This document shows positions 45,674 to 49,916 of a DNA stretch of 64,000 bases, piece by piece. The position numbers were made by a program, and so were the translations under genes. Location of the stretch: NCBI GenBank assembly GCA_964533855.1, contig CAZHNM010000014.1, positions 5,238 through 69,237 of the forward strand. The letters are read 5' to 3'. Within the stretch, counting starts at the first letter, position 1. Each line of letters opens with the position of its first letter. This DNA is from an uncultured Brevinematales bacterium. Its GTDB lineage: Bacteria > Spirochaetota > Brevinematia > Brevinematales > JAOACQ01. A model generated the notes under the pieces. That model worked only from the letters and a program-made list of their open reading frames with translations. It made no database searches and had not been told where the DNA came from.

Positions 45674-46180
45674 ATGCAGGAAAATTCTCGGGTAATAATA
45701 GGAATAATAACGTCCGGATATATCATTAAAGTCATCGGCAAGGGGACAATGGAGTATTGTTCGGAATTATTCCAGTTCCTTTCCGAAAAGATTGAAAATG
45801 AAAAGGCTGAAAATGTGTATTTCGAGCTTTCCGAAACGACATATCTTGACAGCTCCTTTATAGGAGTTATAGTTTCTGTGCAGAAAAAGCTTAAAAAAGC
45901 CAGCAACGGCAACCTTATTCTTTTAAATCCTTCGGATAAGACAAAGGAAATACTCTCCACCATGGGCCTTCTCGACATAATGCCTATCCAGGAGAACGAC
46001 ACCTTTAAAAACATAGAAATCAGCAGTGAAATCAAAAAAAAACTTGAAAAGAACTACCAGGACATACAGGTTTTACTGGAATCCCATCAGAATCTCATGG
46101 AACTTTCCAGCGAAAACAGGAAACGCTTCAGCCTTGTCGAGGAAATGCTGAAAAAGGAACTCGAGAAGGAGAAGAAATGA
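45674..46180 (+). CDS. STAS-domain (anti-sigma antagonist-like) protein
   Basis: FELSETTYLDSSFIG motif. Confidence 0.85.
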   Translation: MQENSRVIIGIITSGYIIKVIGKGTMEYCSELFQFLSEKIENEKAENVYFELSETTYLDSSFIGVIVSVQKKLKKASNGNLILLNPSDKTKEILSTMGLLDIMPIQENDTFKNIEISSEIKKKLEKNYQDIQVLLESHQNLMELSSENRKRFSLVEEMLKKELEKEKK

Positions 46181-46971
46181 ACCGTATCCACCCGACGGCG
46201 CTGCTCGGCAAAGATGTCAAACTCGGAGACAATATAGACATAGGTCCGTATGCCGTTATAGACGGCAATGTTGAAATCGGGGACGGCTGCGTCATCGGCC
46301 CCTCCGTTTACATTACAGGCTGGGTAAAACTAGGCTTAAAAAACAGGATCTACCCTTTTACAGCAATAGGCACGCCTCCCCAGGATTATTCTTTCGGCGG
46401 AGAACCGGGGCTTATCCTCATCGGGGATAACTGCATGATCCGTGAAGGCGCCTCTATACACACCCCCGTCCATGGCGACCAGGGCTCTCAGACCGTTGTG
46501 GGAAATAACGTTTTTTTAATGGGAAATTCTCATGTGGCTCATAACGCTAATGTCGGCGATAACTGCCAGCTTGTCCAGGGTGCAGCTTTAGGCGGGTATG
46601 TGATACTCGAACACGATGTAATCATCGGCGGCAACACAGGCATACATCAGAATTGCCGGATCGGCGCTTATTCCATGATAGGAGCCCTGAGCAAAGCATC
46701 CCAGGACGTGCCGCCATATATGTTAGCCGACGGCTCGCCGGTCATCGGATACGGCCTGAACAGCGTCGGTTTGAAAAGGAAAGGCATAGGACAGGAAGAA
46801 CGGTCAAAGATAAAAGAGGCATATCAGATCCTCTTTTCAGGAAAATCCCGTAAAGAAGCGCTCGTTGAGTGCCGGATAAAATTCCCTGAAGGGAAAGTGA
46901 GTGTCCTGATCGATAACCTGATAAAGTTCATCGAAGCCTCAAAACGGGGCACAATCAGCTATCATGAATAG
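46177..46971 (+). CDS. lpxA: Acyl-ACP--UDP-N-acetylglucosamine O-acyltransferase
   Basis: IHPTA, hexapeptide repeats, IGTPPQD, SHVAHN, HQNCRIG, QDVPPY, GLNSVGLKR. Confidence 0.95.
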   Translation: MNRIHPTALLGKDVKLGDNIDIGPYAVIDGNVEIGDGCVIGPSVYITGWVKLGLKNRIYPFTAIGTPPQDYSFGGEPGLILIGDNCMIREGASIHTPVHGDQGSQTVVGNNVFLMGNSHVAHNANVGDNCQLVQGAALGGYVILEHDVIIGGNTGIHQNCRIGAYSMIGALSKASQDVPPYMLADGSPVIGYGLNSVGLKRKGIGQEERSKIKEAYQILFSGKSRKEALVECRIKFPEGKVSVLIDNLIKFIEASKRGTISYHE

Positions 46972-48124
46972 CAAGACTATTTTTGTTTCGGCCGGCGAAG
47001 TGTCCGGCGATATACATGCCGCCGCCCTGATAAAAAAAATGAAGGAACTCGATCCCACCCTCAGTTTCGAAGGCCTGGGCGGACCTAACATGATCTCTGC
47101 AGGTATGAAGAGCATTTTAAAAGCCGATTTTTCAACAATGAGCACAATGGGATTCATGGAAGCAATGCGGTTTTTTCGTAAAAAATCCTCTATTTTAAAA
47201 TCGAGCCTTAAATATATCAGGGACAAAGAGATTAAGCACCTCCTGCTTGTAGATAACCAGGGCTTTAACATACCGTTGGCAAAAAAAGCATTCAAATCAG
47301 GCGTAAAAAGCATATATTATTTCCCGCCCCATGTTTCAATCTGGGCAAAGTGGAACGCCCGGATAGTGGCCCGGTATGTCGATCTTATAATAGCTCCATT
47401 CTACCAGGATTACCTGATCTATAAAGAAAAAGTCCCCGCAGGCAGCGCGGTCTTCCCGGGTCACCCTCTTCTCGATATTACATCGGAACCCTTCACGGCA
47501 AAAGGGTTATATGAAAAATATAAACTTGATAAAAACAAAAAAATCGTTTCAATCATGCCGGGAAGCCGTTTCCAGGAAATTGAAACCCTCACCGGGCCGA
47601 TGCTCCAGGCCGCGAAGATCCTTATTGAAAAACATGGGGTGTCTGTTATCCTGCCGGTTTCTCACAAAGAGTTTGAAAAAACAATACTTGAAAAGATAAA
47701 TTTTTACGGACTGGAAAATAGCATCATAATTATAAGGAACGACTCATATAACGCGATGAGGATGGCGGATGTCAATATCCTGGCTTCGGGGACCGCTTCC
47801 CTCGAATCAGCCCTTTTCCGCAAGCCTCCGGTTATTTGTTATAAAATATCCCCTGTTTCTTTTCTGATTGGGAAACTGCTTATACAGGTGAAAATGATCG
47901 GGCTGCCGAATATTCTCCTGGGAAAAAAATATTTTCCCGAGCTCCTGCAGAAGGATTGCAGCGCTGATAATATAGTTAAAGAAACTTTATCTCTCCTGCA
48001 TCCTGACGCGGAGAAAAAGAAGGAGATGGCCGGATATTTCGATGATATCAGAAAATCTCTGGGAGAGGAAAATGTCATCGAAAGAGTGGCGCGTTTATTA
48101 ACCGAAAGGATTTCGGATGCCTAG
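46964..48124 (+). CDS. lpxB: Lipid-A-disaccharide synthase
   Basis: SAGEVSGD, GHPL, PGSRFQEI, ASGTASLE, IGLPNIL, PELLQ. Confidence 0.94.
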   Translation: MNSKTIFVSAGEVSGDIHAAALIKKMKELDPTLSFEGLGGPNMISAGMKSILKADFSTMSTMGFMEAMRFFRKKSSILKSSLKYIRDKEIKHLLLVDNQGFNIPLAKKAFKSGVKSIYYFPPHVSIWAKWNARIVARYVDLIIAPFYQDYLIYKEKVPAGSAVFPGHPLLDITSEPFTAKGLYEKYKLDKNKKIVSIMPGSRFQEIETLTGPMLQAAKILIEKHGVSVILPVSHKEFEKTILEKINFYGLENSIIIIRNDSYNAMRMADVNILASGTASLESALFRKPPVICYKISPVSFLIGKLLIQVKMIGLPNILLGKKYFPELLQKDCSADNIVKETLSLLHPDAEKKKEMAGYFDDIRKSLGEENVIERVARLLTERISDA

Positions 48125-48524
48125 GCTTCTCGGGATCGATTACGGCGGGAAAAGAGTCGGGATCGCCATATCCGACGAATTGCAGATTTTATCCAGCCCG
48201 CTAACGGTTTTAATCAACAATGCCTCTTTACCGTCGGAATTGAAAAAAATATGCAAAGATAACGCGGTAGAAAAAATAGTCATAGGGTTCCCCTATTCCG
48301 AAAAATACAAGGAAGCGTCCCTTGAAGTCACCGCATTTTCAGAAAAAATAAAACAGTACACAGGGCTTGCCGTCGATTTTCAAAACGAGGAAAACAGCAC
48401 GGTTTATTCGTTAAGCCTTCTGAAATCAATGGGCATTAACGAAAAGAAGATCAAGTCTGTAATCGATAAATTCGCCGCCCAGAAGATTCTCGAAGATTAC
48501 ATCAAAAATAACCCCAAAGCATAG
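48117..48524 (+). CDS. ruvX: YqgF/RuvX family nuclease
   Basis: LLGIDYGGKRVGIAISD, VIGFP, IDKFAAQKILE. Confidence 0.9.
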   Translation: MPRLLGIDYGGKRVGIAISDELQILSSPLTVLINNASLPSELKKICKDNAVEKIVIGFPYSEKYKEASLEVTAFSEKIKQYTGLAVDFQNEENSTVYSLSLLKSMGINEKKIKSVIDKFAAQKILEDYIKNNPKA

Positions 48525-48607
48525 AATGGTGTATGATATTTATTACACCCCGTCATGGGGTTCATTCATATCTCTATTAATTACAATCGTTAACCCGCTT
48601 TTCAATG

Positions 48608-48623
48608 TGGCATAATAATTGCA
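48608..48623 (+). promoter_or_regulatory. Candidate sigma54 (-24/-12) promoter upstream of lpxC
   Basis: TGGCATAATAATTGCA: GG-N10-GC with TGGCA and TTGCA flanks, 30 nt upstream of ATG. Confidence 0.65.
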
Positions 48624-48652
48624 ACATGACATGTAGAATTATGGAGCGTTAG

Positions 48653-49582
48653 ATGAGAAAGCAGCAGACATTGAAAAGCAGGATAGATTTCAGCGGAACA
48701 GGGATACACAGCGGCCATTCCTGCGATATCATTCTCAAACCGGCTCCCGAAGACACGGGGCTGCTTTTTTTAAGCAAAGCGGGTCAGTCAAAAGAGTATA
48801 TACCTTACAATATCGGAAATATTATAGATACCCGGAACAACATATCCATATCCAACGGCAGGGCCGTTATCAAGACTGTTGAACACCTTGTTTCGGCCCT
48901 GTACGCATGCAAAATCGATAATTGTATTATAGAGTGCAGTTCCAACGAAATACCGATTCTCGACGGGAGTTCAAGGCTCTTCGTAGAAGGCATCAATAGC
49001 GCCGGCATCGAAGAGCAATCAATCACCCGTGAAGAATTCATGGTAATCAACCCGGTCTGGACTACCATGTCCGACAAATACATAATAGCCCTGCCTTATA
49101 ACGGCTTCAAGATAAGCTACACCATTTCCTTCCCTAATTCTCCCATAGGCACCCAGACCTTCAACACTGAAATATCCCCGGACACGTTCAGCAAGGATAT
49201 TTCGAGCGCAAGGACGTTCGGCTTTATAGAAGACCTTGAAAATTACAAAAAAACCGGCCTTTCGAGGGGTGTAACTCTTGATAACGTTCAGGCATACAGC
49301 AAAAAAGAAAATAAGATCCTTAACTCATCCAGGTATCATGACGAACCTGTGAGGCACAAGATCCTTGATCTATTAGGAAGCCTCGCCCTTTTGAATTTCG
49401 ACATTAAAGGCTTTATAATAGCTTACAAGGGCGGTCATACTATCGATGTGGCTTTCATCCAGAAAATGATGGCAATTTTCACTGCGCCCATACCCCGTCC
49501 TCTCGACCGTTTCTATCATGGGGAATCGGGTTATTTCTTCAATGCGGGAAACACGGCTGATATTCTCAAAATTCCTTCCTGA
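48653..49582 (+). CDS. lpxC: UDP-3-O-acyl-N-acetylglucosamine deacetylase
   Basis: GTGIHSG, TVEHLVSAL, EIPILDGS, ARTFGF, RHKILDLLG, GGH. Confidence 0.95.
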   Translation: MRKQQTLKSRIDFSGTGIHSGHSCDIILKPAPEDTGLLFLSKAGQSKEYIPYNIGNIIDTRNNISISNGRAVIKTVEHLVSALYACKIDNCIIECSSNEIPILDGSSRLFVEGINSAGIEEQSITREEFMVINPVWTTMSDKYIIALPYNGFKISYTISFPNSPIGTQTFNTEISPDTFSKDISSARTFGFIEDLENYKKTGLSRGVTLDNVQAYSKKENKILNSSRYHDEPVRHKILDLLGSLALLNFDIKGFIIAYKGGHTIDVAFIQKMMAIFTAPIPRPLDRFYHGESGYFFNAGNTADILKIPS

Positions 49583-49607: not shown

Positions 49608-49636
49608 TTGACAAAGGTCACCTGTAAATTTATAAT
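49608..49636 (+). promoter_or_regulatory. Perfect sigma70 promoter of the rpsP operon
   Basis: TTGACA (49608-49613), 17 bp, TATAAT (49631-49636). Confidence 0.85.
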
Positions 49637-49667: not shown

Positions 49668-49916
49668 TTGGCCGCTCATATCAGGTTAACAAGAATAGGA
49701 AAATCAAAGAGGCCTTATTACCGTATAGTCGTACTTGACAGCCGCGATCCCCGCGACGGGGCTTATATAGAATGCCTGGGACACTACCAGCCTATCGAAG
49801 CTGCCAGCAACACTACGATCGACCTTCAGAAATACGATGAATGGAAGAGCAAAGGTGCAAAAGTCAGCAATATTGTAAGGGACATTGCCAGGAGAATGCG
49901 CAAAGCAGGAGTTTAA
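49668..49916 (+). CDS. rpsP: 30S ribosomal protein S16 (TTG start)
   Basis: IRLTRIG...PYYRIVV.DSR.PRDG..IE.LG.Y.P; RBS GGGAGG before TTG 49668. Confidence 0.96.
   Translation: MAAHIRLTRIGKSKRPYYRIVVLDSRDPRDGAYIECLGHYQPIEAASNTTIDLQKYDEWKSKGAKVSNIVRDIARRMRKAGV

Follow-up and report, generated by a model that had tools for sequence, protein, structure and literature searches.

A predicted sigma-54 promoter with a candidate enhancer upstream of lpxC in Brevinematales and other Spirochaetota

LpxC, a drug target, catalyses the step that controls the flux of lipid A synthesis; its textbook regulation, worked out in Escherichia coli, is proteolytic. The lpxC locus of an uncultured Brevinematales bacterium raises the question of whether, in a spirochaete, the gene is controlled at the level of transcription by sigma-54 and an enhancer. 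The stretch of DNA analysed (here called the window; 64,000 nucleotides of contig CAZHNM010000014.1, assembly GCA_964533855.1, positions 5,238 to 69,237 of the forward strand) is contig C14 of a genome, G000, of 3.0 Mb that has 45% GC and is 96% complete. In the window, lpxC occupies positions 48653-49582 of the + strand and encodes a UDP-3-O-acyl-N-acetylglucosamine deacetylase of 309 amino acids; we regard this assignment as secure, from a match to Pfam PF03331 (6.2e-84) and a score of 233 bits, against a cut-off of 187, for the NCBIfam equivalog TIGR00325.

The motif upstream of lpxC

A sequence-only reading of the window had claimed a sigma-54 promoter at lpxC with exact GG-N10-GC spacing, and the claim is borne out by TGGCATAATAATTGCA at 48608-48623 (+ strand), in which the −24 and −12 elements read TGGCAT-N5-TTGCA, the GG lies at 48609-48610 and the GC at 48621-48622. 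This spacing is canonical, and the motif matches 15 of the 16 positions of the consensus TGGCAC-N5-TTGCW, the single departure being a C to T change at the sixth position. It starts 45 nt 5′ of the lpxC ATG (48653). Canonical sigma-54 geometry, counted from the position of the −12 GC, predicts a transcription start at 48634 (± 2 nt, + strand) and a leader of 19 nt between this position and the ATG; a ribosome-binding site (RBS), GGAG, read from the sequence, lies at 48643-48646 on the same strand, 6 nt before the ATG. Taking the evidence below together, we consider it very probable that transcription of lpxC comes from a sigma-54 promoter of the enhancer-dependent kind.

The genome carries the machinery that such a promoter needs. 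The presence of rpoN, which the sequence-only reading had named as a check, was confirmed as one intact open reading frame (ORF) of 476 amino acids with Sigma54_AID, CBD and DBD domains, and the enhancer-binding proteins (EBPs) on which the promoter would depend are represented by eight proteins, all with a Walker A motif and either GAFTGA or GSFTGA. Over both strands of the genome (6 Mb), the pattern TGGCA-N6-TTGCW has 16 matches, 10 of them intergenic, an enrichment of about 10-fold when intergenic DNA is taken as the 8% of the genome outside crude ORF calls. Most of the intergenic exact-pattern sites begin 40-50 nt upstream of a start codon that has a strong RBS; the offset at lpxC, 45 nt, falls within that range, in keeping with the geometry predicted there. 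A weight-matrix scan gave 24 matches, 17 of which were intergenic, with the lpxC site scoring highest; although the window's own site was left out of the training set, most of that set came from lpxC sites of relatives orthologous to it, and the rank is accordingly biased upward. The genes behind the exact and matrix sites include amtB and glnA (the latter adjoining the gene for a GAF-GAF EBP), a permease-PII fusion, hsp20, exbB, TonB-dependent receptors, two RpoS/RpoH-like sigma factors and a response regulator adjoining an EBP, and amtB and glnA are classic sigma-54 targets. From the intergenic enrichment, the fixed distance to start codons and the classic targets, we conclude that a functional class of sigma-54 promoters exists in this genome and that the lpxC site fits well within it.

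In order to follow the motif beyond this genome, we retrieved lpxC loci from 40 relatives, of which 21 genomes of the same order (families f1-f5; LpxC identity 49-79%) contain the 5′ end of lpxC. The motif, as TGG[CT]A[CT]-N5-TTGC[ATC], precedes lpxC in all 21, beginning 36-78 nt from the start codon (36-56 nt in 18 of them and 70-78 nt in the other three), and the sequence that flanks it is unalignable among them. The motif was absent at all six lpxC loci of the sister family f7, and neither lpxC nor lpxD was found in family f6, the genomes of which are of about 1.5 Mb; rpoN was present in all 41 genomes. In the 400 nt upstream of lpxC in 40 genomes from other families of Spirochaetota, the strict motif occurred on the coding strand in 18, with 8/9 in f14, 1/1 in each of f27 and f35, 2/5 in f28 (plus two sites that are one or two mismatches off) and 6/8 in the Leptospira-like f15, the last made up of g23 (5/5), g36 (1/1) and g64 (0/2). 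Four additional Leptospira-like g23 genomes carry the motif at lpxC. On the opposite strand, no lpxC upstream region contained a match, and shuffles of 67 regions gave 0.085. The letters conserved across the phylum are TGG.A and TTGC. The conservation in relatives that the sequence-only reading had called for is thus found both in the order and, in part, outside it, and it supports the view that the lpxC promoter is a genuine, deeply conserved promoter of the sigma-54 enhancer type.

The upstream palindrome and its candidate activator

An EBP site usually lies around −95, and a site for an upstream activator is looked for at about 80-150 nt from the start. Within that range the window has a palindrome, GGTGTA-N10-TACACC, at 48528-48549 (+ strand; core TGT-N12-ACA, 48530-48547), centred at about −95.5 relative to the predicted start, which we propose as a candidate enhancer, or upstream activating sequence (UAS). 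The invariant core TGT-N12-ACA was found by anchoring the 21 order-level sequences on the sigma-54 motif; at 19 of the 21 Brevinematales lpxC loci it stands upstream of the motif at a distance of 76-92 nt (76-78 or 86-92 nt), and among the 20 loci with full-length flanks it occurs in 18, whereas shuffles average 1.5 and never exceed 6. In f14 and f27 a related element, TGTGTA-N6-TACCACA, is found 105-110 nt upstream of the motif, in many cases in duplicate. The genome of the window has only eight intergenic TGTA-N10-TACA palindromes, and three of these lie 56-107 nt upstream of high-scoring sigma-54 sites, those of lpxC, lpxD and a sigma-factor gene (C5:74574-75404). The UAS distances of 56, 76-78, 86-92 and 105-110 nt are suggestive, and no more, of helical phasing. 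A separate feature of the window, at 48547-48562, is a small GC hairpin, ACCCC-GTCAT-GGGGT, which overlaps the right arm of the palindrome, has no T-run and is absent from relatives.

We propose that the RpoN holoenzyme would bind TGGCAT-N5-TTGCA (48608-48623) to form a closed complex, that an EBP dimer or oligomer would bind the palindrome at about −95, and that the bound EBP would loop to the promoter and open the complex with ATP, transcription then starting near 48634. The EBP most likely to act in this way appears to be an NtrC/NtrX-like response regulator of REC–Sigma54_activat–HTH_8 architecture with an intact GAFTGA (C5:22399-23835 of the same genome), encoded just downstream of a HAMP–HisKA–HATPase histidine kinase (C5:20799-22484) and followed by a convergent gene for an HD-GYP-type (HD_5) protein. 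Scored against named families, the regulator is closest to NtrX, with a score below the cut-off. Clear 1:1 orthologues (59-88% identity) are encoded by all near-complete genomes of f1-f5, the families that carry the composite promoter of sigma-54 motif and palindrome. In f6 we found only paralogue-level matches (43-47%), located in a single EBP without a helix-turn-helix (HTH) domain, and in the motif-less f7 the homologues (46-48%) have a different HTH.

The C5 regulator is also the best match in this genome to the Leptospira-type EbpB, with 45% identity over the full length, and the two have their kinase–regulator synteny in common. In the two genomes of the Leptospiraceae genus g64 (G117 and G135; loci L145 and L146), the EbpB orthologue is 63% identical but has lost GAFTGA (ASQTDS / SQTEN), and lpxC lacks the sigma-54 motif, whereas g23 has both the motif and an intact GAFTGA. 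We had considered the absence of EbpB from g64 as a phyletic test, which was rejected when this orthologue was found there. The joint loss in g64 is suggestive only, being one evolutionary event. Taken as a whole, the comparison indicates that the lpxC promoter is probably served by an EbpB/NtrX-like two-component regulator, through which an envelope signal, or one linked to cyclic di-GMP, would determine how fast the committed step of lipid A synthesis proceeds.

Two other EBPs were considered and judged less likely. A short, PspF-like EBP consisting of AAA+ and HTH domains only (C13:73049-74089), which in f4 genomes is encoded near rpoN, occurs also in the motif-less f7, and nothing positive connects it with lpxC. 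The EbpA-like GAF-GAF EBP adjoins glnA, and the amtB and glnA promoters have no palindrome, so that a different EBP is the likelier one for lpxC.

A circuit of what appears to be the same design is known from Desulfovibrio. In D. vulgaris, the sigma-54-dependent response regulator DVU2934 had lpxC as its single target by DNA-affinity-purified chip (DAP-chip) and electrophoretic mobility shift assay (EMSA), and the kinase DVU2931 and a response regulator of the HD-GYP type are products of its operon (Rajeev et al. 2011, PMC3333781). In D. alaskensis G20, lpxC has the sigma-54 site CGGCACGATTATTGCT at a mapped transcription start site (TSS), the EMSA-validated site of Dde_3003/DVU2934, GTGTAAAAAACACACA, is centred at −101, and lpxC was the only gene strongly changed in a kinase mutant (Kuehl et al. 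2014, PMC4045070). The systems compared with ours are DVU2931/DVU2933/DVU2934 and Dde_3000/Dde_3003, in which lpxC is the main or only target of the activator. The likeness comprises a sigma-54 site directly 5′ of lpxC, a palindrome rich in GTGT/ACAC whose centre is some 100 nt from the start on its 5′ side (−101 there, about −95 here) and a REC–AAA+–HTH regulator whose gene is found with those of a histidine kinase and an HD-GYP protein, the link of the C5 regulator to lpxC being a putative one. The differences are that Desulfovibrio belongs to Desulfobacterota rather than Spirochaetota, that the half-sites are more widely spaced in Brevinematales (TGT-N12-ACA), that the Brevinematales HD-GYP gene is convergent rather than in the same operon, and that the circuit is known here from DNA sequence alone. 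The two may share ancestry as well as design.

Other readings of the locus

Several points weigh against a promoter at lpxC that depends on RpoN and the C5 regulator, and they bear on different parts of that reading. The RpoN dependence of lpxC is deduced from the motif and its conservation rather than from transcripts, and the EBP was assigned by correlation. No intrinsic terminator was found between ruvX and lpxC (48524-48653), and because the gap lacks one, read-through could supply some or most of the lpxC mRNA. In the supplement of the differential RNA-seq (dRNA-seq) study of L. interrogans, the one spirochaete for which TSS data could be checked, the primary TSS of lpxC is listed at 3328105, and when we placed it on a near-identical genome it mapped to the C of TGGCA in the −24 element rather than about 26 nt downstream; a different promoter is therefore used there in culture, and the sigma-54 start, if real, would be conditional. 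The sigma-54-like motif that precedes lpxD in this genome is not conserved, the lpxD genes of relatives having only an extended −10, TGnTATAAT, without TTGC. Two further points, on the letters of the lpxC motif itself, are taken up at the end of this section.

The alternative that best survives is one of dual control, in which the sigma-54 site is real and most lpxC mRNA comes from read-through of lpxA-lpxB-ruvX or from a nearby sigma-70 promoter, with sigma-54 and its EBP either boosting transcription under some signal or, as a bound closed complex, dampening transcription from upstream. The lack of a terminator favours it, and so does the L. interrogans TSS, which implies an upstream start of the sigma-70 type in culture. 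In addition, lpxC is a normally essential gene, and no transcription comes from a sigma-54 promoter unless an EBP is active. In Desulfovibrio, moreover, lpxC is highly expressed and DVU2934 was termed a ‘fine-tuning’ input (PMC3333781). Against this, the gap of 128 nt contains no convincing sigma-70 promoter, although the genome does use canonical TTGACA-17-TATAAT; the best candidate in the gap is a weak TTAACC-18-AATAAT (9/12), no better than shuffles give, and the statement in the sequence-only reading that there was no good sigma-70 pair thus holds in broad terms. The short, fixed distance from motif to ATG also suggests that a sigma-54 start defines the leader. We regard dual control as possible but somewhat doubtful; it overlaps with the reading of lpxC as transcribed from the sigma-54 promoter, from which it differs in the share of lpxC mRNA ascribed to sigma-54, and the likelihoods that we attach to the two are consequently not to be added. 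The sequence-only reading had also made lipopolysaccharide (LPS) synthesis dependent on an EBP, and of this an enhancer-dependent input stands, but with no terminator between ruvX and lpxC the synthesis may be modulated by the EBP rather than switched in an all-or-none manner.

It is a good deal less likely that the palindrome at 48528-48549 is a terminator of ruvX or some other operator, with the sigma-54 activator binding elsewhere or acting from solution. The palindrome does begin only 4 nt past the ruvX stop, its arm positions beside TGT/ACA co-vary with the symmetry kept, and some EBPs work without binding DNA, the single EBP of f6 having no HTH. We nevertheless rejected a terminator, given that the palindrome has a long AT-rich ‘loop’ and no T-run, and that the predicted RNA fold of the region leaves the arms unpaired and is no better than those of shuffles (z = −0.93). 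The palindrome is kept in f4, where the upstream reading frame ends in a C-terminus different from that of ruvX, and it therefore tracks the promoter rather than ruvX; its distance to the sigma-54 motif is fixed, and it resembles the validated EBP site of Desulfovibrio. These observations favour the palindrome as an enhancer that would be bound by the EBP.

A reading of the conserved element as an extended −10 of sigma-70 (TGnCATAAT, 48608-48616), its likeness to sigma-54 sites being incidental, seems very improbable indeed: the 5′ half of the motif does read TG-n-CATAAT, a T stands at motif position 9 in 19 of the 21 order relatives, and the relatives’ lpxD genes bear the plain extended −10 described above, but the reading is disposed of by the letters of the would-be −10, which vary across the phylum (TACGGG, TACAGA, CATAGA and TACGAA in other families, without the key T) while TGG.A and TTGC are kept, TTGC standing at the exact sigma-54 spacing in 21 of 21 order relatives and at the 18 sites of other families, and moreover amtB and glnA are preceded by motifs of the same class, and a sigma-70 extended −10 promoter leaves no role for a palindrome of the enhancer type at about −95 to −125.

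Wider comparison, further sites and neighbouring genes

The preferred reading, of lpxC under a sigma-54 promoter and an EbpB/NtrX-like regulator, may extend to Leptospira. A sigma-54-type promoter upstream of L. interrogans lpxC was predicted by Hu et al. 2017, as cited in a review (PMC12655853), and judging from that review it has the standing of a prediction. In each of the nine Leptospira-like g23 genomes examined, lpxC is preceded by TGGCATAGAGTTTGCT (or TGGCATAAAGTTTGCT), although the motif lies there about 130-155 nt before the likely ATG, compared with 45 nt here, and the published primary TSS does not match a predicted sigma-54 start. It is a tentative suggestion, which we rate at somewhat below even, that an ancient circuit of histidine kinase, EbpB (NtrX-like) and sigma-54 is what chiefly governs lipid A synthesis at the transcriptional level throughout the LPS-bearing spirochaetes. 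If this were so, lpxC would be assigned as a target to the EbpB of Leptospira, for which that review describes no regulon and names no target, and the joint loss of the regulator's GAFTGA and of the sigma-54 promoter of lpxC in g64 would be explained. On the unverified assumption that g64 is the saprophytic group, the loss of GAFTGA may also account for the statement in the literature that the saprophytic members of Leptospira ‘encode only EbpA’.

In enterobacteria, LpxC is controlled after translation, by FtsH/LapB proteolysis. The enzyme is the same, as is the need to balance the synthesis of lipid A against that of phospholipids, but the lpxC of Brevinematales would have a transcriptional, enhancer-dependent input. 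The contrast with FtsH/LapB control that the sequence-only reading had drawn is therefore real, but sigma-54 control of lpxC is not in itself new, having been demonstrated in Desulfovibrio and predicted in L. interrogans, and no new principle is involved. In the 96%-complete genome, the LapB zinc-ribbon model PF18073, which is short and non-specific, matched only a RadA/Sms-like protein. Francke et al. 2011 (PMC3162934) linked sigma-54 to LPS in general, with lpxC unmentioned. The contribution made here consists of the phylum-wide footprint of the promoter, a readable candidate enhancer and the target hypothesis for Leptospira EbpB. The locus adds a well-footprinted case of what would be enhancer-dependent transcriptional control of lpxC by a dedicated two-component system outside the E. 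coli model, a case which the comparative data carry beyond a single Brevinematales genome into much of Spirochaetota, including Leptospira-like genomes.

The Rrp2–RpoN–RpoS cascade of Borrelia is similar in that a spirochaete REC–AAA+ EBP works with sigma-54, but the target there is rpoS and not lpxC; to our knowledge, Borrelia has no lipid A pathway. In our genome, strong sigma-54 promoters precede two RpoS/RpoH-like sigma genes (C5:74574-75554 and C15:67784-68738; loci L019 and L021), recalling that cascade, and the gene on C5 has its palindrome, TGTATTATAATGTATACA, 107 nt upstream of the sigma-54 motif. The lpxD gene (C4:96413-97527; locus L058:2414-3528), identified by an NCBIfam equivalog at 309 bits, is preceded by TGGTATAATAATTGCA, with a palindrome, GGTGTATGATATTTGTTACAG, near-identical to that of lpxC 56 nt further upstream. 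We rejected lpxD as a second conserved target, on the ground that relatives’ lpxD genes lack TTGC, and the site may reflect recruitment of lpxD to the same regulon in this species, or else coincidence.

Directly upstream of the kinase–EBP pair on C5, within C5:18310-24969 (locus L149), are clustered genes for a sigma factor (regions 2-4), hpf (a sigma-54 modulation protein/S30EA), hprK and HPr. In proteobacteria, hpf and the genes of the nitrogen-related phosphotransferase system (PTS-Ntr) usually adjoin rpoN. In this genome, rpoN is on a different contig from the hpf/hprK/HPr cluster, beside a FapA-like gene. In f6 (G016-G034), rpoN is present but diverged, and the single EBP, of about 400 amino acids, lacks a C-terminal HTH; the family looks like a reduced, LPS-less lineage with a sigma-54 activator that would act independently of DNA binding.

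Within the window, the genes 5′ of lpxC form the string lpxA (46177-46971; Pfam LpxA), lpxB (46964-48124; Pfam LpxB) and ruvX (48117-48524, + strand; Pfam RuvX), and directly 3′ of lpxC lie rpsP-rimM-trmD. The promoter of the latter genes is a perfect TTGACA-17-TATAAT (12/12) at 49608-49636, 26 nt past the lpxC stop, and rpsP most likely starts at the TTG at 49669, which has the RBS GGGAGG and gives the N-terminus MAAHIRLTRIG, rather than with the longer listed ORF that begins at the TTG at 49608.

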